Shown here: positions 5,049 to 58,449 of the stretch, in pieces
Position numbering within the stretch: the first letter of the stretch is position 1
How the letters are laid out: each line of letters begins with the position of its first letter
Assembly: GCA_030704615.1 (NCBI GenBank)
Contig: CM060731.1
Coordinates: 54,312,001 to 54,376,000, forward strand
Source of the DNA: Takakia lepidozioides
Lineage: Eukaryota; Plantae; Bryophyta
Length of the DNA: 64,000 nucleotides
Direction of reading: 5' to 3'
Made by a program: the position numbers and the translations under genes
The notes under the pieces: model-generated
The model's database searches: none
What the model was told of the DNA's origin: nothing
The model's input: the letters and a program-made list of their open reading frames with translations, nothing else

Positions 5049-5069
5049 GTCCCATGTCTTTCATTTCTT

Positions 5070-10991: not shown

Positions 10992-11029
10992 ACCGTGAGG
11001 ACACGGCTTTTTGAGAGGGGAAGGGGTAA

Positions 11030-15690: not shown

Positions 15691-16219
15691 TAACGTGCAC
15701 CTAAGCATCGTGCCACAACATACATCACTGTCCACCACACAATCCTAGAAAGCTATAGCACAATGATAATGAAAGTGAACACAATGGAAATACTCTACTC
15801 TTGAATCCACTCAATCTGCTCAAGAAATCTAGCGTTGCTCTTTAAACAAAGCAGCCCGGCTTTTTACCATCACGGGTACCCAAGTGGCTGCTCTCAATAC
15901 CTAGAGCTATGGAGGTGAGAAATGCTCATGGAGGCTCAACTACAAGAAGCTGAGCCTCCTCCATCCTCACAAGGGGAAAACCTATCCCCATGTCCCAAGT
16001 GAGGCTCGACACCTCAGTTGGCATGTGAGACCAAATGAAGTTCCAACACACAAAATATAAATATAAATATCTAAAATGTCCTAGTTAACTAGAAGTAGGT
16101 AATTATAGATAACCATGACTAAAACCATGACAGCTGTCGTGCACCTAAGCATCGTGCCACAACATACATCGCTGTCCACCACACAATCTATGTACACAAT
16201 CCTAGAAAGCTATACCACA
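15691..16219 (-). repeat. 3' terminal repeats of family B: B1 (16135-16219), A2 (15764-16132), B2 (15691-15763)
   Basis: GTGCACCTAAGCATCGTGCCACAACATACATC occurs at ~15695 and ~16139; A2 matches 43089-43452; PPT-like TAGGGGGCG adjacent to B1 on the minus strand. Confidence 0.85.
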
Positions 16220-16481
16220 ATCGCCCCCTAGCTGGTGATTAGGTCTCTCTAACACCGGATAGCTGACAAGTATTCATCCCAATAAGATCATCGTTTGGTC
16301 ATCAATCGCCCAAGTCCCAGTATCTGAAGGCAATAGATCAAGAGGCCGGGTGCAAAAGTAGCCCCATCGTTACTCGCCTTCCTGCAATCCATGGCTTCAA
16401 TTGGGTGTCTATGGCATTGAACTCCCGTTAGCTAGACCTTGAATCACTTGTCAACCTCACCACTATCATGCCCCACTACCT

Positions 16482-17232
16482 CTATTCAAGGCATCGTGGA
16501 CATAACCATTCTCCACTAGGAACCTCCTCAAGTGGCGGTGTCAAGCATCCCATGTGCCACCCCCTTGAGCATTTGTCACATACCAACATGGTCACGGCAC
16601 CACCAGCATACCCACATAGCATGCAACACAAACCTGCAGGTACCACTGCAAGGTTGGGATCTATCATCCCATCCACATGTGGAAGGTGACATGGCGCACA
16701 ATTGCGCATATGGTCCTTCCATACCATGCCATCTCGACCCTCCAGAATCAACACTGCTGAAGGCAACACCTCCCGGACCCTTAGAATCATACGACCTGTT
16801 ATGACATCCAAGGTCGTAGGCGCTGTCTGCTGCAGATACACATAGTCTCCAAGATGGAAACGCCGAACACCTGGCCGATATCCCCCTCCATGTATAGTGG
16901 CGTACCTCAATGTGTCTCGGTGTTGGGCAATAGCAAGGTTCTCAAAAGCCATAGGCATGACTTTCTTGAACAACTCTGCCCGTTGGGCACATGCTTGTGT
17001 CCACACATCCGGATCATCAAGGTTGAGAACTAGTGCAGTTTTCCCTGCGAATAGATGCAGACAAATCTGGCTCTCGGCCAAAGAGAAGGAAATAAGGCGA
17101 GAACGAGGCAAGTGATGCTTGCTTGCTAAACCTGTAGCCCATGGCCAACCAAGGTAGCTGAAGGTCCCAATCTCCCAAGTGTCCCTTCTGCAAGCCATAC
17201 TTGCGCAAGCCTCGCTTGACTGTTAACAATCC
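16482..17232 (-). pseudogene. Integrase C-terminal region with PHD finger (family B)
   Basis: TVKRGLRKYG, SPYFLLFGR, then CMLC-x9-CDKC-x4-H-x2-C-x14-WLCPRC-type C4HC3 pattern (CMLCGYAGGAVTMLVCDKCSRGWHMGCLTPPLEEVPSGEWLCPRC). Confidence 0.92.
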
Positions 17233-18163
17233 AACTCCCAATTTTCACTTATTTTCTGGTGTAGGAGTATAACATCAAACAACTTGGGAACTAAAATCAT
17301 TTCTGCTCGCACTCGTTCCCAAGATGGGTGCACCACGTACCCATTCTTTTCCAAAACAAGACAAGAAGAGGACAGAATTTACAAGGGCATTTGATCAGGA
17401 ACCAGAAATGTATCCCTGCTAAGAGAGACAACAACCCACAAAATCCAATCGTCACAACCTACCTGTGGCAGGGATGCCTCGGCGTGAGCCTGGTCACGTG
17501 AGCGCGTGAGCGCGACTGCGCTCACGCCACGTCACCTTGCGCAAATGCCACGTCACGGGGCTCAGTCCACGTCATCACACGTGGAGGCCGAGTCACCACG
17601 CACCCAGAAAGAAGTGGAGTGTATTCCCGCGGATTGGCACCCTTTACCGCGGAAACAAGCTGGACGACATAATAAAAGGCATTGAATAAATGATGGATGA
17701 ATGTACAGTTGGATGATAAACAGATGGATGAGTTGAAAAATCTATGTAGATGGATGAATGACGGATGGATAAGAGTAAAATGGATGAATGTATAATGGAT
17801 GTTGAGCAATGACAAAAATTCATGACAGGAAGATGCATGACCAAATCTTTTGACGAATGCACAAAGTATATGAAATGAGTGTGGAAGGTTTGTGGGGTGG
17901 ATTAAAGAGTACAGAGGATGAATGTACAATGGATGTTGTACAAAGGAAGCTTTCATGAATGGAGCACGCATGAATACAGTGTAGATGAATGCACAATGGA
18001 TATGAGAAGAGTCAGGAAGGTTTGTGAGATGGATTCATACATATAGCAATTTAAACGAAAGTTGATTCTGTGATTATTATTTGTTCTAAAGGAACAACTA
18101 CGGTAGAGTAAGGGGATTCAACGTTTTCCAGATAATATGAAAATGAATATAAAAGAATACAGT

Positions 18164-21100
18164 TCAGTCTGACTCAGAGTCAGTACAATGTATCCCCTCT
18201 TCCTCTGCATCTAAGTCTAAGTATTTTAGAACACCGGATCCACGCTGGATACACCTACGGCTGGCCACTAAAAAGTCAGGGGATAGGGACTCGACGCGTG
18301 AAGTGCCATTGCTTCGGCATAAACAGGAGCAGAAAATTGGAAAGGGGGCTGTCGAAAACAGACTCGCCAGAAATGACTGTATCTCCTGAAGATCCACCGC
18401 TGGCTTTCCTGAAAGACAGCCTGAAAAAGTTATTACTGTAACTTTGATGTTATCGAGAAATTGAGTATGACTCCCAAAGAGGGTTTAGCACTTACTCACA
18501 TGAAAAGTCGTTGTCGACCTGCTTATCTTCGGGATCGTCATCATTTCGAATATGAATCCGATCAGTCTGTGTGCCTGAAGTGGAGCCAGACAAAAGGGGG
18601 AGGAGCACTGTGTTGTAGAGGTCAGAATCACCCTCCATACAAAAAGGCTTCTTTGCCTGCCTGCCCCAAGAAACCAGACAGGAGAACATAAGCAGTTTGG
18701 AGGAGGGGATTTAAGCAGATGAAACTGTTGAAAGGAAACCAATTCGGAAGGGAGAAAACGAACCTGTGGACACAGAAAGATCGACCACCCCGTGCAGAGC
18801 GGTGGCTGCATGACTCCAGCAGTATTTGCATGAATGCTGGTGACTTTTCCTTTGCACCTCTCCAGGGAGTGCCATCTGGTCTCTTCAGAGTCTGACTGGA
18901 CTGCATGAAGTTGTACAAAATGTCATCGACATGGGGCTCATAGGGGGGGTTGACGAAACAACCCTGGTCAGAAATCTCAAAGCTGCGGATGGAGGATGGT
19001 GTCTTTGATGTGCGAATCCTCCGCAGGCAGATCGCCTCGAACATCCTCGTCTGCCAAAGATAGCAGGTTAGTGTGGTAAACACAATCTAAAGTGGAAGTG
19101 TGTACATCGGCTATTCAGAACTCTGACACCAAAAAACCATGAATCGTTGATGATCGGTGTCGATCATAAAACATTCTACTAGAGTGGAGCTGCAGAGAAA
19201 ATTGAAACTCATGATCAAAGCATAAGCAGAAGGCAGACGGCATACCAGCTGACCAGGGAAACCCCCTTTCACAAGGTAGAGGCTGTTCACACAATTCCAT
19301 GTGCGCAAAACTTCAAACCCTGAAGACTTGAGGTATGATGCCAATGCCCGACGACTATCATTGTCACATGACTGAAAAAGCAGAAGTGTCCCTGCATCAG
19401 AGAGGAAATTGTTACAGAACCCGAATACCCAACTCCAGTAGTTGTCCTCGAATTTGTTCCACCCTGGCGTCTTGCCCTTGGAAGAACTTCTGGCACAGCC
19501 TGGCCATCCGGGATGTCGAGAATGACAATGTCGGCCGCATAAGTTTTCTGCACACCGCACACGAAGGTGGGACCTGTGCTCACCTGCAACAGACATGTTT
19601 TTATAAGAACGATGGCAAGAATGTTTTCAAAGAACGAGACTGAAATACTGCCAACGAAACTTTCAGAGAAAAAGGAAAGAAAGTGGAATTCTCACCAGAT
19701 TGAGGAATGAGATTATATTGTCCCAGGTAGGGGATGGCACCCCAGTGTATCCTCTCTTTCGACTCTGCATCATCGAAAGCCAACCCTCATTAACATTTTC
19801 ATCTCTCCTGCTGAATCAGAACGGGAAGGGTGTGGCTTGGCATCGAACACGCACTGAAGAGTGCGGGTATATCTTCCAGCACTAAAGTCCTGCCCACTCT
19901 CCATCTCCTTTTCATTCTCCTTCCCCTTGTCCTTTTCCTTCTCTTTGGACTTGTCTTTGTCCTTTGGCTTTTGCTGGTGAGATGGCTATGACATCAACAG
20001 CCTTGTTTTGGTTTGCGGCCCGCCTTCTTTCCCTTCTGCGGCGTTCCTGAGCATCAGGCTCCTTGGCAGCCAAGGTTGCTATGTTTCGTTGATACTCTTC
20101 GTCAGTCAAAGGCGCCAGCATCTCAGCGTTTGTTCAAGTATTTCATATGCTGTTCTTGAAAGGTCGTGTGCTCAGGTGGGCAGTCAAGGTACCACCCACA
20201 GTCTCTGAAGTGAGAAGGACTCCAGTCCTTCAATATCCCTGCAGTATACATGGTTGGATCGTTTGCAGGGTCCGACCACATGTCAAGATAGTCGGGAATT
20301 CCGCTCAGGTGATTTCCTTCCATAAGCACATATTTCGTGTACCTGAAAAAAGGAGATGAATCCCAACCCACAAAAGCGCTCAGTGAGTAAGATGCAAGTA
20401 GAACAGAAAGAATAAAACATGGATTGAAATGGCTCTGACAACTGCTCCAAGGACCTTTCAGGACCACACTACTGCTCCAGATATGAATGTCGTCAACGCC
20501 ATTCAGAACATTCCATTCCATGACACTGTAAATACATCCTAATCCAGGTGAATGCAAATAAGCGATTAGAAATGACACAGACATAGAAGTGAATGTCGTC
20601 AACGACATTCAAGAATGAAGCCAAATTTACTGAAATGAAGCAAAATCACAGGATGGAAATAAAAAAATTGAGTAAGGAACCATCCAGGAAAACTCAATGC
20701 ACATTCATAACGAACCTATCACTGAGGACCTCACAACATCACTGTATGTGAATGGCGTCAACGCCATTCACAAAAATACAAAAAGAAACCAATTACTTAG
20801 CTCCCCAATCCATGAAAATTGAATTTGTCGTTTTTGAATAATACAGACACAGCTGTGAATGTCGTCAACGACATTCACTTTGGATTTCTTAAAACAGAGC
20901 TTATCAAGCCTCCATATTCATCGCAAGAGGAAAAAACAATGCAGAACAACTGAATGTCTGCATTGACATTCAGCAAAATGAAGTGATCAACCCTCATTGT
21001 AACCTCTATGGACATTACAAAAATTTAAATAACCTTGAGGACCACACAACAACTCCGTATGTGAATGTCGTCAACGCCATTCAAGGACATTATCAATTCT

Positions 21101-23770
21101 AATCAGGGACAATATAATTGCACCCTTAGATCCTAACCAGGTGAATTCATATACTCGCTTAAGAATGACTCAGACAAAGAAGTGAATGTCGTCAACGACA
21201 TTCAATCTGGATCTAAGATTGCAATCCATATGAAGCCACAATTTTTCCCAAAAAAACAGTAGAGTTTCAAGTATGACATTTCACCTGTACACAACTCGCA
21301 TCATGGCCCACTCTCCTCCAACCTGACTGTCAAAGTCGTTGGACCGTAAAATGTTACCATCTTTGGAGAACTCCCGGAAAAAACAGTATCTCCAGGTGAG
21401 ACCTCTCCACTTCCTTATGTATGCCTCCAATGACATTTGGGGAGGGGAAACAATCGCAATGTTCAGGTCCTTCAAAGTCTGATCCAGCACAATGACGGCG
21501 CGCTTTTCGAGCTGCAAATAGTATATTTGTCAGAATTGCAAAAAAGAAACACATCACATACTTGAAGAGAAGAAACAGCATGTTCGAATACACACCTGAC
21601 TCCAAAATGTAGCCTTGTGGAGCCAGTTATCAAACACCAAATCACTGATTCCTTCCACCTTTGTGCCAGGCTGTATGGTGCTCTTTGGGAACTGATTCAA
21701 GTCCTTTACTGTTTGATCTGAGTTCCATATCTCCAGCCACCTTATTTTTGTTTGTGGGTCGACCATCGATATGGCCAGCCGGTGCAATTTCTCCTGCTGC
21801 ATCTCCGGATGCACATGCTTGTCATAGTGTGTTTTGATCTGCTGAAGGAACTCAGGACCAAGTCCAGGATCTACTATTCTAAGCTGCTTTCCGAAGGCTG
21901 ACATCAATTTGGTTCTTCGCATCTCAAACTCCTTCTTTATTGCAGCTTCCACACCCTTTGATGTCCTTAGTTCCTCTGGTGTAGTGCGGTAATATTCGGA
22001 TTTTCCCTTCTCAGCTGCCTGCCAGTTCTTGCTGCATTCATTCAAGTAGTGATTAGCTCCGAAGGGACTCTAAACATGTATTCGAAAAGTAAACAGATTA
22101 CAGACTCGGGCTTACCGCATACATGTACTCCCAGAAACGCCTCTCGTGTCAAAGAATACCAAGTGCCTGCAGCTCTTCCTGTTTCGCACTTCTTGATGAT
22201 ATTGGGTGGTAGTACTGTCCGAAAATCATCCAGCTTCATCAGACCAATCCTCTGAATTCGGAATAGTGTGTGAACCAAGCTTGTTGTCACATGCGATTTC
22301 TCTGTCGATCTGCAAAAACATTGAAAACATTGCATTCCTTAACACTGTTTTTTGAGGATCAACAAGACACTACAGAGGGAATCAAATCTCCTGGATGACT
22401 TACTTGTTCACGTCGTGCATAGCTGTAAGAAGCCTAGCGATGTCGTTTCCTGGATCCAAAACCATTGCCTCCACAGCAACATGCTTGTCTTTGTCTTTCG
22501 AATGGTGTTTCTGAATGTATCCCATCCATGCCAGCAATCGGTGGTTGCCGTCCCAGACGTAGAACATGTGGTTGCAAATTGCTGGGTGTTCTTTCCCATC
22601 ATGAGGCCCAGCTCGAACTCCTCATTGGCATCTTTCCAGCACTCATCCCAGTTATCACTGATCTCTGGAGAAACTAATGTGCTTTTCCCATTTATATCCG
22701 TCAGTGACACATAAAAAACTTGTGCACCAAGTCTATATCCATGCACAAAATCACTCTCCAATTTTGTTATGTCATGGGAAAGAGGTGGACGCACAACAGG
22801 CATTGATATCATCCGGCACAGAGGTATGTCCAGACGCCCTCCAGATACGAGCATGTCCCTTATAACCTCCTGAGAGTTTACCTTCTGGAATGACATGAGT
22901 TCTTTCACCTTGTCAAGGTAGTGCACTTCGGATTCATCTGCTTCATCTGTATTCTCTGAGCTTTTTGCGGACTCGTCCCCATCTCCAGATCCTTTCCCCT
23001 CTGATCCTGTAGGCTTCGACCTCACAGTTTTCTGCACGATGCCATTCAGTTCTGACTAAGTGATTTGCAAATAAAGCGGTAACGACAATCACTCTGTATC
23101 AAGGAAACTCACCATGAATGGTGTGAAAGAATTCAGCACAATCTACACATGCAAAGCCGAGACTGCCGTATTCAAAACAAAAGTGAGAGCGATAGCGAAC
23201 GGCGTTAACGACAATCACAAAAGATAACAACCTGCCGGATCGGTGTTGTGTAATGACATATATGTGCAACTGATTGGCGGCAACGACATTCAGTGTAGTT
23301 TAGGGAGAATAGTAAGTGCAGACTCTCTCTTCAAACACATAGGTACATAAATCTCATGAGCAGAATCGAATGGCGTTAACGACGCTCGCGATTCAGTAGT
23401 TCCTGCTAAAGAATGGAAGAGGAAGGACTCCTTGAAAGGCAAATCACAGACTATATGATAAAACTTACTGGCACCTTCTTAGGTTTTGAAATTTGATCCC
23501 CTTCTGCAGCTTTCCTCTTCCCTCTCACATCTGCTGGAGTTTCTGTCTGCGCAAGGGTTTCTTGACCTTCTTCAGGTTCGGCGTTCCGCGTGCTTCCACC
23601 TTCTTCAGTGTCCCTGCGATTCATCTCTGCCTCCACAGGCTGGCGCACTCTTATCGCCGACTGTGTCGCAGCCGCTGCCTCAGTCTCCGTCTGCTCTTGT
23701 GAATCAGTCTCCGCGTTCACCTGCTGCCTTGGCCCTGTGTTCTCCAACAAACGACGCCTCGTCATTTTCT
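18164..23770 (-). pseudogene. Multi-exon gene: ParB/Srx-like N-terminal domain plus C-terminal beta-class N4C/N6A-type methyltransferase-like domain
   Basis: Reconstructed across frameshifts: FYVWDGNHRLLAW...MHDVN (~22410-22570); ADIVILDIPDG...PGWN...FLSDAGTLLLF (19250-19580); PWRGAKEKSPAFMQILLES..VVDLSVSTG..FCMEGDSDLY (18600-18880); GT-AG introns. Start and end approximate. Confidence 0.72.
20485..21203. repeat. Array of seven 20-bp palindromes, consensus GAATGTCGT-CA-ACGACATTC
   Basis: Copies start at 20485, 20591, 20750, 20857, 20952 (variant), 21063 and 21184; more degenerate copies at ~23073, 23197, 23272 and 23368. Confidence 0.9.
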
Positions 23771-24618
23771 CTCTTGCTCTGCGTCTCTCTCTAAGGGAAG
23801 TAAAATAAAGAGACTTTCTTCTCTTTCGTATTCTAGAAGGAACCCTCTCCAGCTTGACTACCACTCTCCCTCTAAGCGCGAAAAGTAGAAAAACGCAGTG
23901 ACTCCCGATTTCTTGCGGGATTGCCTGTGTTCTTGCGTGTCTCTAGAAGCATCGGATTCCCTCCCGCGTGACCGTTACACATAGTCGTTTCGTTATTAGT
24001 GCACATGCCAGCAATTGGTGTACAGCTGTTCGTATTCAGTTATGGATGTCTGACGTGTGCCGCCCAAACAAAACGGCGTGTTCTAAATTATAACTGGTTC
24101 AATATTTAAAAAGAACAGCGAATCCCAGAAATTGATGCGCAGTCTTAAACAAATAAATATAAATGAACGAGAGTTTGATGACAAATTTTGGAATATCATA
24201 CACGGTCATCCTTGTTATCCAAACCCCACATTCGTTGCACATTTGGAACTTTCCAGGTGCGCATGATCATTGGTAGTAGTATATAGATACATTTACTTAA
24301 TCTGCAATCCCATTCTCGGATCCTGTGGCATGCTTCCAGGAAGTCGGCTTTGTTATTGGGTTTATTGATGAGGTTCTGATTAACGGTTTAACAGTTGCCG
24401 ACACTGCCCTATGGATTCTCTGACCACTGGGCCCACAAGAAAAGTAATTAAAATGGACGGCTGCATATCTGGAATGAATAACAGAATATGCACAGTCGTT
24501 ATCTGAGCTTCCTCCGCCATATGCTCTGCTCATTCTTCAACTGTGTTCTGGAGACAGCAGTAAACCGATTTACACTAGATCTGCGATAGCAAGGTACAAA
24601 CATACTCGAGGAAGGAAG

Positions 24619-27600
24619 ATGGCTTCCTCTGAAGCGGAGTTCTTCTCAGACGACAAACCAGTGCCGTTCTCCCAGGAAGTCCTTGACAATGGATTTGCAA
24701 TTGTTCTGGAACATGTCTTGGCTACCCGTTTTCAGCTGCAGAATGGCTCCATCTTTTTGGAGAAAGAGGTTTACGATCTGAAAGGGAAGTTGGTGAAATA
24801 TTCTTTCCAAAACCGTGATGAGACGGCTCATATCAGCCAGTGGAGAGTGCGTCCTGGTCGATACAGAGTACTTGGAGAGCCTCGGCGAAAGTCCCTTGGG
24901 TCATATGTGACGCCCGGGACTGCTGCTTCGGTCGTTGAAGACAAGAGGGAGGTGGTGGTGAAAAAAGAACAGACTTCCTCCACTCCAATCGTTGAGCTTT
25001 CGGATTCTTCCGATGATGACATAAGTGAAATTCCAAATCCAGTCCTTCCTACTGTGGTTGCAGAAGCTGATGAAGAAGAGATTTGTAGTGTCATTCCAAA
25101 ATTGCGGGCGATGGGAGGAATGGCTGGATTCAAAAGTGAGTTGCGGGGAATTGATTGGGAATCTTTGAAGCAGGTGCCTGTGAAGTTCTTGCCGGAGACT
25201 TTTGATGGCGATATCCTATTCGAGCTGCCTCCTCCTCCGCGAGTTGAGGTGTAACAATCATGATGATGCATGGAATGGACAAGAAACACGACGGGCACCC
25301 GTGGTGCAGAACAAAAACATCCAATATTCAGAATGATGACAAGCTTGTTTTCAGGAGGACAGTTTGCAATGGACACCTTAGGTGTGATAATTTGAATTGC
25401 AGACACTTTCTTCAGTCTGGAGTTCATAATCAAAGCGAATGGGAGGGTCTGGCGGAGAATCCATTTCAGCCTGGGACTGCCCCTCCACCGGCAAACACTT
25501 TCGTCTGCAAATTCTGCAAACTTGTGCCATCCTGCTTGGCGCTCTGCGGAGCAAGAATGTACTATGTTGTCCACCGTTTGAATACAATGACGAGAGCTTG
25601 TGTGCATTTTGGATTCCATAACCATCCTGTCTCGAAGGGGGATTACAGGGAGAGTGTTGAGACAGTATCGAGGTTGATCAAACAGGAGTTCGGGAGAAAC
25701 CCATCCGCAACAACATCTGCAATTGCTCTGGCGCAAGCAAGTCCTTCTTGGAAAGCCATATTTTGAGTGAAGGAGATTCTGTGGGGACTAAACTTGACGG
25801 TGCAGCATTGGACCTGGTCATGGATCATTTCTCCACTTTAAGTTCACCTAACATTCGGCATCAGATCAATGCATTGAGAATGGGCTCTGGGATCAGAGGC
25901 TACATAGACAATATTTTGGAATTGAAACGATGAGCAAGTACGATTACATCCAGGACATGTATTCCCAGGTCAAGGTGCCATCAAAGTTTTTCTTTTCAAA
26001 ATGTCGACTGTTGGGGAGGGCAGTGGGGTTAGCCTCGTGAAGCGGATGCAGAAGACTGGGGACTTGCAGAACTGTTTTCTTATGTTTGATCATGTGAAAC
26101 GAGTGAAGGATTGGACGACAATGGCTTGTCATGTCTACGATCCAGTGTACCAACGAGTTATGACAATTGCAGTTTTGTGACATGCAATCCGAGGATACGG
26201 AATCCCAGAAGCTCATGTGGAATTCCCTGATACGTGTCATGGGCTGCCATGGGCTGCCATCTCCAAATTTCGCAGGTTTCATGGCGGATAGTGCTCAAGC
26301 AAATTTCAATGCTATTCGTATTGTCTTCGGATCGGGCGACCCAAAAGTGCCTATGCCAGGAAGAGAGCGTACATGTCTATTCCATTGGACACAATCTCTG
26401 GAAAAAACATACAAAGTCGGACATCAAACCAGAGATGCAGACTCAGCACCGTAAATGTGCAAAGAGTACAAAGATGCTAGAACAATGAAGGAGGCGGACA
26501 CTTTGTTCCAGACAATTCGTGCCTGGTTCTCTTCTGGAGCTGCATCACTTGAGAGTATGAGAGCATTGGAAGATTGGCTGGCGTTTTGGCACTTCCGGTA
26601 TAGACAGTGGGGAGCAGCCATGACAATGGTACGAGGCTTCTATTTCATGCTTTATTCATACATTTGCTTTTTTCCATATTTTTGACTCATTGCTTTCTTT
26701 ATGTTGTTTCCTGTGCACTATTCTGAAGTGTGGTTATCCTTTGCAGAACATGTCCATTGAGGAAATGGCGGACATGCCATCTTGCAATTTGGCAGAAACT
26801 GTGCACAATGCATGGTTGCAGCAGTCTGGGAAACGAGGTCGGGATTTGTATGTGGCAACAACAGATGATTTGATACGTGCCTTGCAACAACAAACCCGAT
26901 ACCGTGATTTCTTACGAGGTGGGGTTGGTGGCAAGGGTCCGGACAAATCGGAGTTGATGTTGCGTGCTGCAAACAGATCTGGGGATCCAATCAAGATAGC
27001 ACGGGCGGTGAGCATGTATGCCCAGGGAACGCCACTTGTTTCTAGAGTTCCACATCTTGAAGGGGAGGAGAGATTCGGCTCCTGTAAGAGGAAATTGAAC
27101 ACTCCACCTGGTTCGGATTCAGATTCCCACAGGGCAGACCGTGATAACTTCTCGAAGCCTCGTGTTCCCCTGCATGACAGCTCCATGTCCGGAACCTCCA
27201 TTGTGGAGGAACCTCCAACACGACGGCAAGCTCCAGCATCAAACCGTGCCACTGAAATGGTGCAGGAGAGAAACAACCCCCTTGATGTGCTTGAGTCCGC
27301 ATGCCCCGACCACGTTTGGCACATAGAACGCACAAGTGTCGGGTCTCGTGTGAAATGTACAGCGATCAGGGCAACTAATTTCGAGAAGTGCACTTCATCT
27401 ATATCCAGAGGTGGTGCCCGAACTCCTGCTCCGACTTTCACGGGCTTGATGCGTCCATACGGTCAACCAGAAGCCAAGAACCACAAGTTCTGGTTCTGCG
27501 CAGATGATTGTGCCAGATGTGTGCATGGAACTGTGCGTCCTTCCGTAGTGATGAAGCCATCTCCTCCAACCGTTTGGCCCGTGAAGGTGGGAACACATCT

Positions 27601-31196: not shown

Positions 31197-31199
31197 ATC

Positions 31200-32639: not shown

Positions 32640-33105
32640 AACAATACCTCGTCGACATGTATGCCAAACGTGGGAGCATTCCCTTGTGGACAAGGAGTGT
32701 TTAACAATATGGCTGAGCGAAATGTGGTGTGGTGGAACGTGATGATCGCAGGACATGCACAACATGGGCGGGGATTGCAGGTTTTGGAGACCTATGAGCA
32801 AATGATGTGGGTCTAGGGGGTGAAGCCCGAGCACATTACGTTTGTTTGTGTTTGTAGTGCATGTGCGAGCCTGTTGGAGAAGGGCAAAGAGGTCCATGGT
32901 TGCATCGTCAAAGCTGGAATTGTGGTAGATGTCATTCTGAACATGAATACCCTTCTAGATAGGGAGTGTTCAACAATATGGCTGAGCGAAATGTTGTCGT
33001 GGAAAGTGATGATCGCAGGACATGCACAACAGGGGCGGGGATTGCAGGTTTTGGAGACCTATGAGAGTTGATGTGGGAGGGGGTGAAGTCCGACCACATT
33101 ACGTT
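32640..33105 (+). pseudogene. PLS-PPR fragments inside the CACTA
   Basis: [52 protein letters not shown]. Confidence 0.85.
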
Positions 33106-35329
33106 CAGAGAGTTCAAATGCCTCTCCACCATGACCTTGCTTAGCTAACCATGCCTTGCTGATGTTGTTGTCTTGCACTTGAGCTGTTTTTGGACACTGG
33201 CTGGAACATCCACAAGGCGGCTCTGCTCGAGAGAGAAATCAGCTTGAATGCAGGGGCAGATTTTGAGATCACAATCGCCACTCAGAACGTTGTTCTTTGC
33301 ACCGGCATGGCATGTCAACATGCATATCAGCCCAAACTCATTACTCCGTGAGCTTCCACTGTCGGAGTGTGCCCATTCAAGCCAGATCTTCGAAACGCAG
33401 GGATGGAACGGGGTTTTGAAACCAGCATTGCTAATTGGATACCCAATTCAGCTCCGCATCTTGGTCCATTAATCTGCTGCACATTGTGAAGTTTTTCTGC
33501 CCGTTCACGCAAGTTGAAGAAGGAGTATTCTTAAAACACGGGTACTCATAATCTGAAAATGATCCAGTTTATGTTGCTTGAGTGCGAATATGAGTGTGGT
33601 TGGCTTGGCAGCTTTACATCTGGTCCATCCCACTCGATATGATGAGCAGGTTCAGCTTGACTTCTCTCAACAAAAGACGCTGCCAAGATGGGGTTTGCTG
33701 CCCTAGATGACTTCCCGTCGTTGTTCTAGGCTGCAACATACAATTAATCTGGCCCATGGCGAGGGGCCTTGCCTTCCACCAATCATCTGTAAGTCCCGTG
33801 AAACTATTTTTGTGGCAGTTTGTAAGCAGTGGGCAGCGATGGTGGGCTGTTGTAGGATTTGATGAACTCAATGCCGTGTACTGACAGCAACCCCTCATCT
33901 CTTATGTAAGCATTCAACAAGCCAAGTTGACTGCAGAGCATATTCAGCCCCCCACGTTTCTAGTTGCCTAATGTTCTTCATCTCCTGGGCAGAGCATTTT
34001 CCAGGGTCTCCATTTGTGATGACACACTATCTTCTCATGTGGTTCAGCTTTTGGTCTTGCTCTTGTTTGCACCACCCCAATGAAGGGCAGTTCCCACCTG
34101 CTTGATTCTCTCTATATGGTTGTCTTGGGTCTTGGCAGGGTTCCCACAACCCGCCTTTCCTTTTCAGACTGCCAGTCATCAGCCTCGTTCTCCAATGCTT
34201 CACTTTCTTCCCAAGTGAAGTGCTCTCCTCTTTTATGCTTCAACGTCCCTCGCAGATGTCTTTTCCTTCATCTCTGTGGTGCTTTCGAATGAATGAGCAC
34301 TGATTTACATCTGTTGGCAACACTTACGGTGTCCCTTTCCTTTGCATGCCACTGCAGGCCCGCATTGACTTTCTTGGCAGGGAAGTCTCCTCCTTCTCCC
34401 TCATTTTCTGGCTCTGTTGGTGCCCTCACCATGCTATCAGGGCTGCACTTATTTTGTGTTGTTGCGCCAGCCAAGGGCGATCTTTCACTGGTCCGATTGT
34501 TGGCAACAGCTGATTGGAGTCTTCTTGGCAGAGTCTCCACGAGCTCCCATCAATTTCAGGCATCAGGTTTTCTACCCTGCCCTTCCACTTTTCATAAGCG
34601 AGGTGCCTGTCTTCCTCCCTTTCACTCTTCAGCCTCTCAGGCAGATTTTTCTTCATGCGATTGCTGCTCCCATACTTCCAGTCCTTGTTTAATTTTCTCC
34701 AGCCATCACCCTCAGATTTGACAAGGTATTGCTGCCCTTCCTTGTGTCTTTCCTCACTCCCAGCTGCTGGTTTTATCCCGATTCACCTCTCATCCTTGCC
34801 TGGGGTTTTGCTTGCCAAACAGCCCTTGTGTGGGGAACTTCAACGAAAGGCAACATCTCATTCTCAGCTCCTGTCTTTGTACCTCTTTGCAGCAGTCCAG
34901 CCTCGGGTGCCTCACTTTCTGATTGCTGGTTGCATTCTTCGCCGCCAACCTTTGACAAGAAAGTGTGCTCCATCTTCCTCATCTCCTACTGGTTCCCTTG
35001 ATGCTTCACCTCGTATCTCTCGTATGTCTTCCTCCTCATGTTTTAGCAGCAGCTCCCATGCTTGAATTGCTACTTTTCCTCGTAGTTGATCTTGTGCTTT
35101 CCTTTTTCTCCGTAGCCTAATCAACAGTTTTGTCTTGGCAGCTCCCTTGCCATGAGTGCCTTGTCTCACTGCATCTCCAGTGCCCTCACTGCATTCCTGT
35201 GGAGTCTTTTTTGCACTATTCTGACCCTCGTGGCATGCACTTTTGCTGCGATGCCCCACATGTATGCTGCTCCCTTTAATCATCAACATAGTGCTCCAGA
35301 GCCAGTTCCTCATTGTTGACCAGTTGACC

Positions 35330-35600
35330 TTTCAGCCCTTGGACCCCATTTTCCCTTCTCCCATGTTGCCTCGTCTTTCTGCTTCATCATTTGCTTTACT
35401 TGCACGATGTTGCTTCTTCCCTACAGTTGTGGCTCTTTCCCATGTTGCACTCACTCCCATCATACGTTGTGCAGTTGATAAGACTGAGATGAGTTGATGC
35501 AGGATAGGGGGAGGGCTTGCTGGTGTATGTTGTCCGATAGGCCCCATGCACAGAGTCAAAGCTGGAAGTCAGCCTTGCAAGGACCCAAGTGAGAGAAGTC
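35330..35600 (-). pseudogene. Possible copia-type gag remnant inside the CACTA
   Basis: LTWVLARLTSSFDSV...LHQLISVL followed by a degenerate CCHC-like NCxKKQHRASK. Confidence 0.3.
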
Positions 35601-35774
35601 TGGTGGGGTAGCATCTTGGGGGATGGCAGTTAGGGCAATGTGTGTCTAGGGCAATATATGTCATAGCAGCGGGTGATGTGCTGCCAATTTTGAGGATAGA
35701 GACAGCCTGTAAGCTGTAGATTTGTATAAGTGGTTTCTTCTGACACATATTGCTCCCAGTTTGCCACAACCAGT

Positions 35775-37020
35775 TGTTTGCGTTTGTAGTGCATGTGCGA
35801 GCCTGCTAGGGAAGGGCAAAGAGGTCCATGGTTGCATCGTCAAAGCTGGAATTGTGGCAGATGTCATTCTGAACAATACCCTTTGGACAGGGAGTGTTCA
35901 ACAATATGGCTGAGCGAAGGATAGAGTGTAATGACTGCTAATGAAGGCACCTTCTTCAATTTCACCTTGTTTTCCCCTCTTATCAGAATCACCCCTAATT
36001 ATTCATGTCTGAATTCTGCAAGTTAGCTGGTTGAGTGAAGCTTTGATAGTTTGGAGTGACTTTGACATGATTCTGCCAATGTGACAACAGGAAAGTATCA
36101 GAAACAGGTAACACAGACGAGGAGAAGTTGTGGAATGAATATTTTTCTGACCCCAGTCAATGGTGGGACAATCGAGGCAAGAAGGTGAATGTTTGTTGGA
36201 TTATAGAGAGTAGCAGATGCAATTGAGCATAGGAACTAGTGTGATAAGTTGAGTTGGGTGCTTCCTAGAACAAGTCTAGGCTGTCATCGTCAACTGCTAG
36301 CAACAAGGCAAGGTTGTATGCATGATTCGTGCGAGGCATGGATAGTTGAAGGAGCAAGGATAGAGTGTGGGTGCAGATTCACCCAAGAGGGCCAGACTTC
36401 AAGCTCCAGATTAACTATGAAGCTACAAGAAACCTGCATGGGTAGATGGTCAACTGGCAGCAACGGCACAATTGATAAAATCAGACATTGTTAATGAAGG
36501 CATCTTCTTCAGCACATTTCACCCTGTTTTTCCCTCTTATTAGAATCGGTCCAAAATTTCCATGTTGAATTATGCAAGTTAACTGGTTGAGTGAATCTAG
36601 TTTGGAGTGACTTTGACATGATACTGCTATGTGACAACAGGAAAGTATCAAAAAACAAGTAACAGACATGAGGAGAAGCTGTGGAATGAATACTTTTCTG
36701 CCCCCAGTCAATGATGGGACAACCAAGGCAAAAAGGTGAATGTCTGCTACATTTCAGAGAGTAGCAGACGCAATTGAGCATAGGAACTAGTGTGAAAAGC
36801 TGAGTTGGGTGTTTCCTAGAACAAATGTAGGTTGTCATTGTCAGCTACTAGCAGCAAGGCAAGGATGAATGCATGATTTGTGCAGGGGCATGGATAGCTG
36901 AAGGAGCAGGGATAGAGTGTGGTCCAGATTCATCCTAGAGGGCCAAATTTCAAGCAAAAGATTTACCTATGATTCCCTGTGGATCAATAACTACAAGAAA
37001 CCTCCATGTGAGATGGTCTA
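35775..37020 (+). pseudogene. PPR fragment plus two tandem PDF-motif exon-intron-exon modules inside the CACTA
   Basis: EKLWNEYFSDPSQWWDNRGKK|GT at 36119-36184, then AG|IHPRGPDFK at ~36377; second copy at ~36670-36960. Confidence 0.8.
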
Positions 37021-37843
37021 TTCCGTGGAACTCACTGAAGTCTTGCATTATGAGGATTAGAACTGCTTGACTTGCACGAGGCCTTGACCCTTAGGCAATC
37101 CCCAGAGCAGCAGTAGCTTTTGGGCTGCTTTTTTACTTTGTGTTTTTCATTTTGTCCCATAAGCTCTTTGAGCTTTCCGCAGATGTAATAAAGTACCATT
37201 TTGTTTCATTTCATTCATTTTCATTTCATTTTGTTTCATGGCATGTCTTTCATCGTTTGTGCATTTCTAATGCATGATTAGTTCTCTTGTATGGCATTAC
37301 TAGTCGACTCACTACAAACACCAAAACTCCAAAGCATGAATCACTATGAATGATTGTTCAAGTACTTTCAAGCACTTCATGTAAAGTAGTAAAGCAGTGG
37401 TTGCGCCAACTTCCGCAGTCGCAATTGCCACTGGGCATGTAGCACTGCAAGCTATGTGGTCTACTACCACGTGGCAGTAGTGGTGCTCGTCGTGGTGCCG
37501 CCACGTCGGCATCCACATCGTCGTCCACGTCCGCGTCCACGTGTCACCGCGCTTCAGTGAGTCGGTCCACTCATCCGGAGGGAAAAGTCAAAGTCAGCCC
37601 AAAAGGTCAGACACACGGGCGGCCCGCCTGGTTACGCCACGTGGTTCTTCAGCATTAATTGCATTAATCGCTGAACAGTTGTTCGTGCGTCTGCGTCCTT
37701 TACCACTCCAATCATTGGATGTCCAACCCAACTACTACGTCTGTTGTAACTGCCAGTCGATCCCATTTTTTTGACTTTTACGACTCAAAATGAGTCGTTA
37801 CCCCAGTGGTAAATGACACGAATGCTTCTAGTGTGTGTGAGCA

Positions 37844-38000
37844 AGGCAATGTGACGCATAGAAATACGCCGAATTATCTCATCCTTCTCCACATACAAGT
37901 ACTTGCGTACTTTAATCCCTGCTTGCAATACTCCTGCAAGCCCAGTGCTCATGCCTCCAAACAAGTCTAGCAAACAAATCCCTGAGTCAGGTGGTTGCCA
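37844..38000 (-). pseudogene. C5-DNA methyltransferase domain, N-terminal part (motifs I-II)
   Basis: CLLDLFGGMSTGLAGVLQAGIKVRKYLYVEKD; joins 31881 after removing the CACTA and one TSD. Confidence 0.88.
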
Positions 38001-38116
38001 GGTAATGGGCACTGTGTCCAAATAAGCTAACTCAGGAGGTCCAGGTGATGTCACTGAACTCCCCTCACTCACCAATGGAAAGGCCTCCTGCCATGCTTGG
38101 TGCACACACTCGCCTG

Positions 38117-40889
38117 CTACTCGATGCACATTCCCAACCGTACCCACAGTGGAATATGCACAGGCACATGAGGAAGCAAATCAGCCTTGTATGCCAATTG
38201 TTTGTCCTCATCAGGTGATGGCCTATCATTTGCATGGCTATTGCCCTCCAAGAGCTCACCACCCCAAGCCACCACCCCTGAGAATGCAGCCAATGTGGGC
38301 ATCATGTTCTTATGATCCACCGCTACATTCCCAATTAAACCGCACTGGGAGTAGTGCACGTCGGCCATCTCTTGACTGCCATTCCGGCCTGTAGGATGCC
38401 GTTTCCTCCCAAAGTCCAAAGTAAATCCCATGGGGTACAACACAGCCCCACCAACAAGCACATCATAGGACATCGCGTCCGTAACAATGGCTTTAGCTCT
38501 CATGACTGAGCCGTCCGTAGGATGATCCGGCTGCAATCGAATGAAGAGCTCATGGCGTGTAATCCCTCGTGCCTTCTCTGAACCGCCCAAAGATGTTTGA
38601 ATTTGGAAAGGGCAAGGCTCCAAATCCGCCTCTGTAAGGCCCAAGCCTGCAACTGCTGCTCTTCCCAACATCAATGGCTGTGCTCCTGAGTCCAACAAGA
38701 CTCGCAGTGGCATATACCTCCTCCCAGCTGGGCCACCCAACTGAAACACACCATCCCAATTGTCCACCAGGACTACCCCATGAGTCACCATACTGCGCTC
38801 AATGGCTGGCCTAGCTGGCAACTCTTGCAACCTTGCAGCTGCCGCTTGCCATGGCGCAGCTGTGGCTGTCTTCACCCTTGAATCCAGGGCATCCATGCAT
38901 TGCATTTTATCTGTTATCCCCGCAGATAGTGCCGATGCATCACCACTCTCACAGAGTGTAGCTGCCAGTCTAAACACTGCAGCTGGCCGCATCCCCGGCA
39001 TTGCAATTGTCGTGGCAGAAAACAATGGAGCTTGGCAAATTGCCGTAGCCGCCCCCAACAATGTATTGGCGGCACCTTGCTTTGCAGCACCACCCACTGG
39101 CAAATCCCGAGCCATACCAACTCTCCCCAACGGCACTCGTGGCTCTACCTCTGACACACTTGGGCGAGCGGGTGCCATCGACGGCGTAGTTGGCACTGTC
39201 TCAGCCAATGTGAAAGACTGTGGAAGCTTTGTCTGTCGACTTGTTTCCCCCCTTTGTGGATCAAAATCCACATCTGCTCCTCTTGGCTCAGGAGCACGCG
39301 TTGCTGCTCGAGTGACAGCAGCTGCAGAGTCCACATGCAATGGTCTTGCAAGTGCGGCTCCACACATGAAGCCCATACCAATCTGGTCTTCCCTAGGCAC
39401 AGGAGGTTGTGTAGGTGGGGCTTGAACCTCAGGCCTTGGAGCTACGCAACATGCGTAGTGGCCATGGTAGCAAGACGTTGTTCGAGCTGGGCAAGCCTAT
39501 CTACCATACCTTGGTCATGACCTTGACCTTGACCTTGTGCTCCCTGATTTTGGTTACGACCTCCACCGCGACCTCTGCCTCCTCTACCTCTCTGGACTAT
39601 ATTGCCTCGTTCTCGGCCACCATTGTTCCCTTGGAACTGGCCTAGCCGTAGCTCAGGATGCAAGTCATAACAATGGGCCTCCTCATGCCCATACTTGCCA
39701 CAATGCCCACACTGTAGTTGTGTAGGCTGTACCTGTGCCAGCCCTTTGCCTCTCTCCGGGCAATCTTTCTATGGGGTCCTCCACAATCCCAACATGTCAC
39801 TCCCGACTGTTGTTGTCCTGAGAATGAAGGAAGTGACATCTGGAATTGAGATCCTCTCTGTTCTTCCCTGGGCTTCGTCTGAGCCCCTTTGTTGCCTTGA
39901 GCACGTTGGGGTAGTGGTTGTTGTTGGCTAGGAGCCCCACTTCGTTGTGTCTCCTTACCAAACCCCACCATGACCACTCGCTCCTCCACCATATTGAGCT
40001 CTATCCGCTCTGCCAGCAAAAACACGTTTGCTAAGGTGGGTTGGGCCACTTGTAGGAGAGTTGCATCCCGCACCCTTCTCCTCAGCTCCTTGTCCAATAT
40101 CCCATATCATAATTGGACTGCTTGAGCTTCCGTAACCCCTTGGGTTACATTTATCAATCGCCTCTTGCGCGTGTAAGTCTCCCTCAAACTCTCAGTAGGC
40201 TTGCGATGGAACTCCTGCAAGCTCCACAATTTCTCCGTCCTTATCCCCTGGTAGTTTCTCCTCAACTCCTCAAAGAACTCCACAACTGGGTTAAAGGCAG
40301 GCACGGGTACTGGTGTTGCAGCAGGAGCTTGAGTGGATTTCCCGGCTCCATCTTTACTTGTCCTACTACTAGTGCTTGTAGTTGGGGATGTTGGTGTAGC
40401 TGTTGGTGTCGCCGCTGCCCTTGTGCCTCTAGTGATGGAGACATAGTCAGGTGACCAATACACCCGCCATTCCTCAATCTCCACCTCATGTCCCCGCCTA
40501 AATTCATGGTAGTCATCCATAGGCGGCCCCTCAAGGTGCTGAAACAGCCCCTTCCACGCCATAAAAGGCGTAAACAGTTGTGGATTGCGCATCCGCTGCA
40601 AATCACACCAACTATCAAACTCCTGTATGAAATCATCAAGCTCGATGGTGCCCACAGCTCCAAAGTACCGACGTGGCCCCTTCATAGCTCCATACATTTC
40701 CTCCATCGTATCCCACAACAATGGCACGGAAATGGCTTGCTTCCTCGGCGAGAATTCTCCTAACTTTGAGTCTGAACCTTCATCAGAAGACACTGAAGGT
40801 GAAGGTGGCCTAAACCGCACACCTCGTCTTGTATACCCACTAGTATCGCTGGTGCTCGTACCGGCACTCTCCTCAACAATTGGTGGCAC
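38117..40889 (-). pseudogene. gag and aspartic protease of family B
   Basis: gag-like LDDFIQEFDSW...LQEFHRKPTESL, CWDCGGPH knuckle, protease VLLDSGAQPLMLG...YDVLVG. Confidence 0.85.
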
Positions 40890-43088
40890 CTCCGTGATGA
40901 AAACTCACAACCACACCTATTGTAAACCCCTTTCCACAAGGTAACCGGGTAGAGAACCTGTTACGGCTTATGGCTTAGACTACTAGGTTCGTAACATAAA
41001 CTTGCACCTGCATCCACCACAAGCACTCCTATGGTCTGCTGGTCATCAACCCAGCCTCACCATAAGAGAAACAATGATGGTCTGACTGGTCATCACCCCA
41101 GCCTCACCACCGACAGCACACTCTAGGGTTGACTGGTGATCAAATCCGGACTAACCTCCTATGAAAACAAACGCCCACACAAAGCTAACATGGCGCACAG
41201 TTAAGTGTGGAGGAGATCCAAACACAAGAAAATCAAGACATCAACTCCCCCACACCAAAAACACTCCACAGTGTTGCTCCTGCAATGACACCCCAGCCCA
41301 AACCCGGACTGACTCTTGCCTCCATCTACGGAAAGGTTTTGGCCTACAGAGAGGGTGAAAGACTACAAGGAAGAGAGACTAAAGCATTTCCTAATCCCAG
41401 CATGCCCTCATCCCATTACCCTATCTCCACACTCTCTTGTTTGAACAATAGACAAGACTACCTTTCAAGGGTCTCTCAAATAACTCTCCAGGAGCCCTCA
41501 AGAATGTCTCTCAAACAATCACTAAGGCTCCCAATCCTTGCACAATGGGACTCCAAAACAGTACACCAAGGCCCCAAGAGCCTGCCAAAACTTAGCCCTC
41601 GAGGACCCCAAAAAATCCCTCATACAAGTCGCCAAAGACTCCTCAAGCTCGCCAAATATTGGCCTCCAAGGACCCCAAATAGTCATCCAAAGAACTCCAA
41701 ATGGTCCTCCAAGGACCCCAAACAGTCCTCTAATGACTCCTCCTATGTCACCATGTTCCCAATGCGTTCCCAATGCGTTCCCAAGTTCCTAATGGGTTCC
41801 CAATAAATTCCCAATAGGTTCCCAAAGTTCCCTAAGAATATTCTTGAGAATATGCCATAGTATTCCCCCAGTATTCCCCTGGGCCTATACGTATTCCCCT
41901 CGTATTCCCATTAGGAATAGCCATTTCTCCCTGGCAATAGCCATTTCCCCCTCATAGAATAGTTCATTTCCCCCTAGGGTTTAGCCATTTCCCCCTAAGC
42001 TTTAGCCACTTCCCCCTCTATTTCCTTGAGGTTTAGCCTTACCAAGCTAGGGTTTGTGCTCCTTGGGGCTCTATGCTTAATCCCCTCAAGCATCCATGAA
42101 TTCTATGGGGTACCAAGGCAAATTCCCTTGATCTTTTTCACCTTAAGCTACTCAAGTTTGTGTCTAACTCAACAAGCAATGCATTGGCCACACAACAAGC
42201 TCAATTTCTCATTGGAACTCAAAATCAACCTTGTATCTCCTTTGGCAAGCCACCAAGCCTTGTCTCCTCTCAAGCCTTGGTCATTCAAGCTCCCTTCACT
42301 TGCTAGCTCAAGAGCCACTCCTCTCAAGCTTGAAATTGCAAAGCTTAAGCCAAAAACATGCTTCACACATGCATCACCTCAGACATAAGGGAATCAACTT
42401 GCTCCCTTCACCTTCTAGCTCTCCTCAAGCTTGAAGTTGGAAGCCACACTTGGGAAGCATGCTCCACTTAAGCATCACTTGCTTGATCAACCATCCACCA
42501 TAGAACTTAAGCCAAAAGGGAATGAATACATGAGCTTCACTTTCCCCTTCCTTGTCTTGTCACATGCTATTATATGGTTGAAGTTGCTATGCATGCCTTG
42601 AGCCACAATCTCTTTTCTTCATGAAGACCATCTCCAATGATCTCCCACATGTGCTCCAAGCTCTTCAATGCTCTAGGCTTGGTTTCACATCATTATGGAT
42701 AGAATTTTCACCCATATGCTTTCCTTCAAACCTCTTGAGCTTCCTAATGCTCTCCAAGTGCTTGCCGTTGTTGTAACAAGCCCAAGCCTATGTAGCTCAT
42801 TTGCTTCTCTTCCACAACATCCACACTTGAGCTTGCTTAACCCTAGATTGATAGTGAAATGAGTACTAACAATCCTTTAGTTGCTCTCCACAAGCCATGA
42901 CACACACCATTGATTCCATAATGCATAGAAATGATTCTCAATCCCTAGAATCCATGCTTCCACACACACAAGACTTCCCTCTTGCAATCCTTGTAACACA
43001 AGAGCTATCTTCCCAAGCTCTTCAACATACAAGTGCTAAACTAACCCTTACACTCTGCACTCACAAGCATAAGGTCATCTTCTTGTAG

Positions 43089-43452
43089 TGATAATGGAAG
43101 TGAACACAATGGAAATACTCCACTCTTGAATCCACTCAATCACATAAATTAAGTCAAGCCAAGGGCACCCTTGCTAAGGGAATCCACCCTACAAAGCCCT
43201 CAACACACTCCATCTCAATACCTAGAGCTATGGAGGTGAGAGATGCTCATGGAGGCTCAACTACAAGAAGATGAGCCTCCTCCATCCTCACAAGGGGAAA
43301 ACCTATCCCCATGTCCCAAGTGAGGCTCGACACCTCAGTTGGCATGTGAGACCAAATGAAGTCCCAACACACAAAATATAAATATAAATATCTAAAATGT
43401 CCTAGTTAACTAGAAGTAGGTAATTCTAGATAACCATGACTAAAACCATGAC
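43089..43452 (-). repeat. 5' terminal repeat A1 of family B
   Basis: Starts TGTCATGG on the minus strand; near-identical to 15764-16132 except for a central ~75-bp block. Confidence 0.88.
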
Positions 43453-45830: not shown

Positions 45831-45838
45831 GCTAGAAG

Positions 45839-58190: not shown

Positions 58191-58449
58191 GTTGTTTGTA
58201 TATATGGTGCAGAGAGAGAGAGAGAGAGAGGGGCAGGGGCAGATGAAAGTATATATCGGTGGGTTTTTTAGGAAAATTAAACCCTAAGAGTGCGACTTTA
58301 AAATTAATCACGCTAATCTATAGAACTGCGACTTTCTCTCTCATACCGAGGTTGATGCTACACCGCTTTGCTGGGAAATTAGGTGCAAACTCCGATGTAA
58401 CAGTATGTTATATTCCTCTGCTTCACCTGTACCTAGAAGCATCATGTTG

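Follow-up and report, generated by a model that had tools for sequence, protein, structure and literature searches.

A Ty3/Gypsy retrotransposon with a DNMT3-like domain and a PHD finger in the bryophyte Takakia lepidozioides, and its relatives in the green lineage

Introduction

Retrotransposons that carry a cytosine-5 DNA methyltransferase (DNMT) have been described from dinoflagellates and algae. The closest known to the element reported here is KnitGypsy-Dnmt3 of Klebsormidium nitens (de Mendoza et al. 2018, PMC5890265), a Gypsy element to which the accessible part of that paper assigns an unrearranged DNMT3-like domain within the polyprotein, DIRS-like repeats (legend to Fig. 4c) and purifying selection. 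We have analysed a stretch of 64,000 nucleotides from Takakia lepidozioides (GenBank assembly GCA_030704615.1, contig CM060731.1, positions 54,312,001 to 54,376,000), hereafter the window, in which positions 15691-43453 of the minus strand are a dead Ty3/Gypsy copy with a DNMT3-like domain and a PHD finger. An element of this kind was known from an alga; what is new is the land-plant host, the wide spread through the green lineage, the PHD reader, a stop codon that ties the DNMT to Gag, a self-priming signal and a palindromic attachment junction. The accessible text of PMC5890265 mentions neither PHD nor Marchantia, and we found in it no counterpart of the self-priming, the palindromic junction or the 4-bp target duplication.

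Other systems share some of these features. Tf1/Sushi elements and Tcn1 chromoviruses, as described in the available part of PMC6317226, also have a primer site that complements the 5′ end of their own long terminal repeat (LTR)-derived RNA and not a tRNA, whereas the window family has a PHD finger in place of the chromodomain, a DNMT and split termini. The Phygy/Selgy non-chromoviruses of the same source resemble the window family as Ty3/Gypsy elements of seed-free plants without a chromodomain and with a 4-bp duplication, but are primed by tRNA-Trp or tRNA-Ala and have no extra domain listed, as compared by description. An arrangement of termini A...B-A-B is shared with SymbioDIRS-Dnmt3 and the split-direct-repeat tyrosine-recombinase retrotransposons, from which the window family differs in having a DDE (rve) integrase, a protease and a target duplication, with no recombinase seen. 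PAT, TOC1 and Ngaro are members of that split-direct-repeat group. The DNMT3 of SymbioDIRS methylates CG in yeast, according to the accessible text of PMC5890265.

EpiLTRs of Cymbomonas and Euglena (bioRxiv 10.64898/2026.05.21.726589) likewise join a DNA-methylation writer and a histone reader in an LTR element. Their DNMT, unlike that of the window family, is sister to DNMT4 and accompanied by an adenine methylase and a chromodomain, and the available part of the preprint calls it distinct from streptophyte Gypsy-DNMT3. In the portions at hand, a 2025 paper and a 2026 preprint refer to streptophyte elements without naming land-plant copies, and PMC6317226 holds no such lineage. Searches on DNMT retrotransposons of Klebsormidium, Marchantia and bryophytes, and on split-repeat Gypsy elements, returned no paper on land-plant copies, with mention in the main supplement of PMC5890265 possible.

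Results and discussion

The window element and its family

The window copy reads, on the minus strand, Gag, protease (PR), DNMT, reverse transcriptase (RT), RNase H (RH), integrase (INT) and PHD, an order obtained from Pfam and from tblastn with Marchantia proteins for gag to RNase H and an algal-type protein for integrase and PHD. Relatives in liverworts, mosses and Closterium have the same order. Two nested insertions interrupt the window copy, which also has frameshifts and stops and has lost DNMT motifs IX-X by deletion. Coordinates are collected in Table 1.

With the 3′ DNMT piece of the window as query, 55 homologous proteins were recognised among 1117 candidates, the best at 67-70% identity; named matches come from Marchantia, Calypogeia, Riccia, Sphagnum and Closterium. 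A first-pass annotation of this DNA had proposed a DNMT-carrying Gypsy family in land plants. The Marchantia, Calypogeia, Riccia and Sphagnum proteins bear this out. Members without a DNMT would have spoken against it; all of the 80 related loci have the domain, with neighbours, where present, in the order GAG-PR-DNMT-RT-RH-INT-PHD. In the host sequencing runs the DNMT bins are covered to a depth comparable with that of some RT and protease bins, depth being no measure of copy number. A metagenome scan with protein P0010 gave 41 pattern matches and no relative, and a scan of viral_contigs with P0080 gave no match.

Two architectures occur. Among 174 proteins profiled, 18 have the order RT-RH-DNMT-INT-PHD and others carry the DNMT before the RT; a search with representatives yielded 136 new proteins, 38 of them again RT-RH-DNMT-INT-PHD. 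Named members of the latter kind are chlorophytes, and named members with DNMT before RT are streptophytes. Chlorophyte relatives with the DNMT between RNase H and integrase were seen in Pleodorina, Volvox, Tetrabaena, Astrephomene and Scenedesmus (among P0107, P0099, P0129, P0168 and P0247). Because one search profile also had integrase and PHD columns, its number of matches does not count DNMTs.

Trees of RT-RH, DNMT and integrase-PHD each cluster the two architectures. Built quickly or with FastTree, and lacking a true outgroup, they do not fix whether the DNMT was captured once or twice, or the direction in which it moved. In the integrase-PHD tree, K. nitens proteins and the window fall in one streptophyte clade (support 99). 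No K. nitens DNMT is among the named matches, and the K. nitens proteins in this tree are no more than possible members of KnitGypsy-Dnmt3. Two Marchantia rows in the same tree are wrongly labelled C, as they contain DNMT fragments only, and tree rows tagged 'noDNMT' are often ORF2 products (ORF, open reading frame) with the upstream ORF unseen.

The DNMT domain

The C5-methyltransferase motifs of the first-pass annotation lie where it had placed them, on the minus strand (LDLFGG at 37970, YVEKD at 37895, GWHCQ* at 31754, ENV at 31617 and RPRLWWTN at 31497). Joined with X at the breaks, the three DNMT pieces span positions 2-256 of a 315-position profile; over 257 aa, 67% of their residues are identical to those of a relative. 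The end of coverage at position 256 indicates that motifs IX-X are deleted, and a host-run contig that departs from the window sequence at 31260 and continues supports the deletion end of the third piece. The copy is dead, as had been stated, with HCQ and then a stop in motif IV and motifs IX-X lost. The match to PF00145 on which the annotation had staked its reading is found in relatives and not in the window fragments alone, where 0 of 3 match and two ORF-level pieces are likewise blank. Of 14 relatives scanned, nine pass the cut-off, two fall under it and three have no match; P0010, P0014, P0003 and P0021 score 35-41 bits against a cut-off of 22.

Motifs I-X are unpermuted in the relatives. 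P0002, which has a complete natural DNMT domain, is nearest in sequence to DNMT3A/B; its best matches among PDB sequences are DNMT3A (E=6e-12), DRM (1e-8 to 2e-4) and HaeIII/HhaI (3e-4 to 4e-3), and its structure model (pLDDT 90) retrieves DNMT3A in Foldseek with E=1e-19 and TM 0.81 by target. Ranked thus by sequence and modelled fold, the family enzyme is DNMT3-like, nearer to DNMT3 than to DRM, DNMT2 or the bacterial enzymes.

Motif IV reads PCQ in 49 of 71 degenerate loci and ENV is present in 58 of 70. Liverworts, mosses, Closterium and chlorophytes have retained the catalytic Cys, ENV, RxR and motifs IX-X. Between the window and moss-type loci the proportions of nonsynonymous and synonymous differences (pN/pS) are 0.25/0.75 for DNMT, with pS saturated, and 0.24/0.74 for Gag; pN is 0.15-0.18 for RT, RNase H and integrase. 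Saturated pS together with low pN indicates that the DNMT has been kept by selection, less tightly than RT.

A conserved stop behind the DNMT

Both the end of the DNMT and the start of the RT are present in 46 loci, in frame in 32 of these. Linkers of the common length have a stop at one codon position in 31 of 31 cases, mostly TAG followed by CAA CCC; the window has its stop at the same place, and the context CAA-CCN holds across the linkers and the window. The liverwort and moss-type proteins P0001, P0008, P0010, P0014 and P0021 end at the matching position. KnitGypsy-Dnmt3, in contrast, is described in the accessible part of PMC5890265 as having its DNMT in one ORF with RT and RNase H. A continuous PR-DNMT-RT ORF, which the first-pass annotation had proposed to look for in intact copies, is therefore not a feature of the window lineage, but does occur in a sister lineage, where P0361, a single ORF of 2811 aa, joins the DNMT to RT and RNase H.

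A stop conserved behind the DNMT suggests that the enzyme travels with Gag-PR, and that Pol is probably made by readthrough. Gag-PR is the abundant product in LTR elements. On the evidence of the linkers the DNMT would belong to the Gag-PR product whether Pol arises by readthrough or by reinitiation. The window context, TAG CAA CCA, agrees in full with UAG-CAR-YYA, given in the available part of PMC3542737 as the tobacco mosaic virus readthrough consensus. A literature search on readthrough in retrotransposons found nothing.

Split termini

The 5′ end of the element consists of repeat A only and the 3′ end of B-A-B, a layout A...B-A-B. Compared with Ty3/Gypsy elements in general, the PR-RT-RH-INT order is present, as are TG...CA ends with a 4-5 bp duplication (CA being taken from relatives), whilst a complete LTR at each end is not, A standing at the 5′ end and B-A-B at the 3′ end. 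The ends assigned by the first-pass annotation, 15691 and 43453, are upheld by a CCCA duplicated on either side (Table 1) and present as a single 4-mer, in register, in a paralogous empty unit near 14690. Two tandem units of about 1 kb, 73% alike (14598-15690 and 43454-44046), are found here; the element lies inside the second and the first provides the empty site. An insertion of no great age is indicated by the 6 mismatches that separate A1 from A2 over 290 aligned bases.

The statement that these termini are family-wide rests on moss-type loci. The B-A-B layout is present in seven of them (six distinct), in one more cut by a contig end and in a divergent subfamily. A 4-bp target duplication flanks 7 of 7 copies scored (six distinct; L019, with an altered 5′ end, was left out). 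The B1-A2 junction has the form ACA-NN-TRT in 10 of 10 cases and is GACA-GC-TGTC in the window, and in most copies B2 begins at the base that comes after the purine run before B1. A single B forms the 3′ end of nine loci, of which three have both ends and the duplication.

A predicted self-priming signal

The middle of A1 holds a perfect 15-nt complement of the sequence directly behind A1 (fold z=-3.45). Complements of 10-12 nt are present in 7 of 18 moss copies, five matching the site and two a second copy downstream, and each is reached by at most 1 of 200 shuffles. Between the window and L078, 4 of 12 pairs differ, with both sides changed each time, a compensatory pattern. Of 14 moss A copies, 13 have a TATA 31-33 nt upstream. 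In the moss A repeat (L078:2676 and others) a local hairpin covers the primer site, and the primer core recurs about 85 nt downstream. No tRNA gene was found in the 64-kb window. The self-priming that marks Tcn1/Tf1 is thus present as sequence complementarity with compensatory change only, their chromodomain is absent with a PHD finger at the integrase end instead, and the Phygy/Selgy combination of a tRNA primer site and no extra domain does not apply.

The PHD finger

The integrase ends, as had been noted, in a C4HC3 PHD finger (PF00628, E=3.9e-11). Its nearest PHD structures in the PDB are those of CHD4, KDM5A/B PHD1, PHF21A, ATXR5, UHRF1 and AIRE. The fingers of CHD4, KDM5 PHD1, PHF21A, ATXR5, UHRF1 and AIRE read unmodified H3 tails. 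By inspection, the window finger is without the cage tryptophan of K4me3 readers. The accompanying remark in the first-pass annotation, that PHD-integrase Gypsy elements are known from Selaginella, could not be confirmed; PHD has no mention in the main text and supplements of PMC6317226 or in PMC3350952, and a literature search for such elements of Selaginella found no such paper.

A proposed life cycle and its alternatives

How might an active member of this family replicate? With the domain order, stop and split ends as described above, we consider it somewhat better than an even chance (roughly 0.55) that active members self-prime, integrate from circular cDNA opened at the internal palindrome and methylate cDNA in the particle. 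RNA would start within repeat A, and its first 12-15 nt or so would pair with the site behind A1 to prime synthesis, as in Tf1; the complementarity is there in the sequence, and its function is predicted. ORF1 would yield Gag-PR-DNMT in bulk, with many DNMT copies packaged as a result, and occasional readthrough of UAG-CAA-CCN would yield Pol. The functional LTR would be B+A, running from polypurine tract to primer site, and the linear cDNA, BA-ORFs-BA, would be closed end to end. At the ACA-GC-TGT palindrome, integrase would then cut each strand 3′ of its CA to leave standard CA ends with 2-nt overhangs, and a single opening there would produce A-ORFs-B-A-B with a normal duplication. The start of B2 at a base defined by the purine tract would be expected of a circle junction. 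The DNMT would place 5-methylcytosine on the new copy, which would enter chromatin pre-methylated, and the PHD finger would tether integrase to unmodified H3 tails (H3K4me0). The ADD domain tethers DNMT3A to unmodified H3 tails.

The signals appear to fit a normal two-jump LTR cycle in which both integrase ends are fused inside the LTR. A retroviral integrase, that of HIV-1, is able to cut a palindromic 2-LTR junction (PMC1905944, in the part available), and in the accessible text of PMC5890265 the 2018 authors argued that the DNMT of their elements is present in the particle during cDNA synthesis.

A number of observations weigh against this life cycle, the functional steps of which (methylation, readthrough and circle integration) we infer. 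Among them are the inactivity of the Klebsormidium enzyme in yeast, the EC variant of motif IV and the weaker constraint on the DNMT among moss copies, all taken up below. The window 3′ end has lost the CA that relatives keep, and for its register we rely on the duplication together with the empty unit. Among the 18 moss copies four have a complement of only 6-8 nt and seven none of at least 6 nt, and the window has no TATA at -30. The moss stop context, mostly CAA-CCC-ATG, has five of six consensus bases and not the full CARYYA, and its ATG two codons past the stop makes reinitiation possible instead of readthrough. The single-B loci could also be explained by recombination between B1 and B2; a comparison of divergence, which is a weak test, does not favour late recombination, since single-B copies (0.90-0.92) have not diverged further than B-A-B copies (0.89-0.91, with one outlier at 0.65). 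Finally, a 2-LTR circle opened at random should yield A-B-A-ORFs-B as well, and B before A was seen at none of 18 informative 5′ ends, a lack that the life cycle does not explain.

This last absence would need no extra assumptions if the split ends were built as in DIRS, PAT or Ngaro elements, the RT templating on the internal B1-A2 junction to rebuild both ends with no end-to-end closure, and the repeat layout is indeed the split-direct-repeat layout called DIRS-like in the available part of PMC5890265. We nevertheless regard such a rebuild as unlikely. The purine tract before B1 and the primer site behind A1 belong to the canonical signals of a two-jump LTR cycle, the purine tract defines the first base of B2, and the 4-bp duplications go with a DDE integrase, no tyrosine recombinase being seen by Pfam in the element ORFs.

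It is also improbable, in our view, that the DNMT is a DNA-binding or decoy module, or acts in trans on host DNA or other elements and not on its own cDNA. In favour of such a role, the Klebsormidium enzyme gave no de novo methylation in yeast, a result that its authors, in the accessible text of PMC5890265, call inconclusive. EC replaces PC in motif IV in 57 of 107 relatives of the chlorophyte type with DNMT between RNase H and integrase. Constraint is weaker than on the RT: omega from shared variants among moss copies is 0.60 in the DNMT, higher than in RT (0.36) and RNase H (0.39), private variants are near neutral (1.03 and 0.99), and pairwise dN/dS (DNMT 0.54-0.68, RT 0.34-0.64) is blurred by decay after insertion. 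The dN/dS test suggested by the first-pass annotation supports purifying selection between lineages, with a constraint among moss copies below that on RT and RNase H. Against a decoy or trans-acting role stand the retention of the catalytic residues and motifs IX-X from liverworts to chlorophytes noted above, the fusion to Gag-PR, which puts the DNMT with the cDNA, and the failure of DNMT3B in the same yeast assay.

An accident, in which one copy caught a host DNMT3 fragment and solo-LTR pieces came to lie in tandem at the 3′ end by chance, might be suspected from window DNMT fragments that alone miss Pfam and from the two other insertions in the copy, but is refuted by the 55 homologous proteins and by the related loci, 80 in all, with the same order and the same termini recurring in independent insertions; the depth of the DNMT bins noted above also speaks against it.

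The proposed life cycle can be taken further, although only tentatively, to an ancient green-lineage clade with its attachment sites as one palindrome in mid-LTR, obligate circle integration, a leaky stop that loads DNMT at Gag stoichiometry, and pre-methylated copies at chromatin chosen by the PHD finger. With the attachment sites moved into the middle of the LTR, such an element must integrate from circular cDNA. Integration from circular cDNA is a side reaction in retroviruses.

Nested insertions and surroundings

Table 1. Features of the window element, from its 5′ to its 3′ end
Feature	Position	Strand	Evidence or remark
Target-site duplication, copy 1, CCCA on +	43454..43457		Empty paralogous unit near 14690
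Repeat A1, 5′ terminus, starts TGTCATG	43090..43453	-	
Predicted self-primer site, middle of A1	43260..43274	-	15-nt perfect complement of sequence behind A1
Predicted primer-binding site, directly behind A1	43075..43089	-	Not TGG tRNA type by inspection
gag with CCHC knuckle, stop and frameshift	39454..40706	-	tblastn with Marchantia P0014, 58% and 40%
Linker and aspartic protease (LDSG)	38144..39289	-	tblastn; Asp_protease_2 match weak, E=0.014, under cut-off
DNMT piece 1 (motifs I, II)	37839..37985	-	Motif search, alignment; tblastn span 38117-37839
Nested CACTA-type insertion, 23-nt terminal inverted repeats, 3-nt duplication	31882..37833		Terminal inverted repeats 96% complementary
DNMT piece 2, motif IV = HCQ then stop	31662..31880	-	tblastn span 31910-31659
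DNMT piece 3 (motifs VI, VIII), ends at ~380-nt deletion removing motifs IX-X	31261..31656	-	tblastn
Family-conserved in-frame TAG, then CAA CCA	31203..31211	-	Fits UAG-CAR-YYA readthrough consensus
RT and RNase H, 4 stops over 450 codons	29385..31145	-	Pfam RVT_1 8e-22, RT_RNaseH 8e-33
Integrase H2C2 and start of core	28821..29384	-	Pfam rve 9e-12, Integrase_H2C2
Second, unclassified insertion of ~11.6 kb (approximate ends) with inverted subterminal repeats, nested in and splitting the integrase	17226..28820		
Integrase core end and C-terminal part, one frameshift	16626..17225	-	tblastn
C4HC3 PHD finger at end of Pol	16491..16625	-	PF00628 E=3.9e-11; PDB neighbours
Short polypurine-tract-like run directly before B1	16222..16229	-	Same run before B1 in moss loci
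Repeat B1, ends CACGACA	16135..16221	-	
Palindromic B1/A2 junction GACA-GC-TGTC	16129..16138		
Repeat A2, middle ~100 nt unlike A1	15765..16132	-	6 mismatches over 290 aligned nt to A1
Repeat B2, 3′ terminus, 13-nt deletion	15691..15764	-	Last bases unlike B1
Target-site duplication, copy 2	15687..15690		

The first-pass annotation was sound as to the domains and motifs of the element, and is silent on the further insertion of some 11.6 kb, on the stop conserved behind the DNMT and on the split termini. The CACTA insert that it placed in the DNMT region is confirmed by 23-nt terminal inverted repeats, by a flanking 3-nt ACA duplication read from the sequence and by insert-free contigs joining 31877 to 37833 in 4 of 4 host sequencing runs. 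Parts of the insert are very deep in those runs. Fragments of PLS-type PPR genes, similar to the PPR cluster at 53450-62500, lie within it near 32400-33100 and 35660-35920, as in a capture of the Pack-CACTA kind. The second insertion has subterminal inverted repeats rich in GCGTGAGC and, at 20465-23292, an 8-copy array of a 41-nt repeat, each holding a 22-nt near-palindrome; its ORFs are broken on both strands, and 0 of 7 scanned had a Pfam match.

Elsewhere in the window, positions 1-5060 of the minus strand hold another Gypsy element, only 24-27% identical in RT-RH and with no DNMT motif match. An element bounded by inverted repeats (131 nt at 97% and two more pairs), with several broken ORFs, lies at 5696-11945. 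LINE-like endonuclease and RT fragments, from ORFs read by eye, lie on opposite strands at 45031-47862. A DHH-type host gene at 50487-52097 is 56-57% identical to its best matches, from Sphagnum and Calypogeia, and 53452-62500 is occupied by an expanded PLS-PPR cluster that has 303-nt repeats. Gene and cluster together point to a bryophyte host at some distance from these matches.

Implications

Several Marchantia entries named 'DNA (cytosine-5)-methyltransferase' are Gag-PR-DNMT products of this family and would inflate counts of host DNMTs, whilst LTR finders that require two full LTRs would likely miss the family. Elements of the Gypsy-DNMT3 kind make up a large clade that extends from chlorophytes to liverworts and mosses and includes the model Marchantia, where study is possible. 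Judged by its termini, the family is probably one of LTR elements that use an integrase and yet insert from a circle. If the tentative extension of the life cycle given above is true, land plants would harbour a DNMT3-plus-reader system made by a transposon. With these elements the question raised in 2018, of what a transposon gains from its own cytosine methylase, becomes testable.

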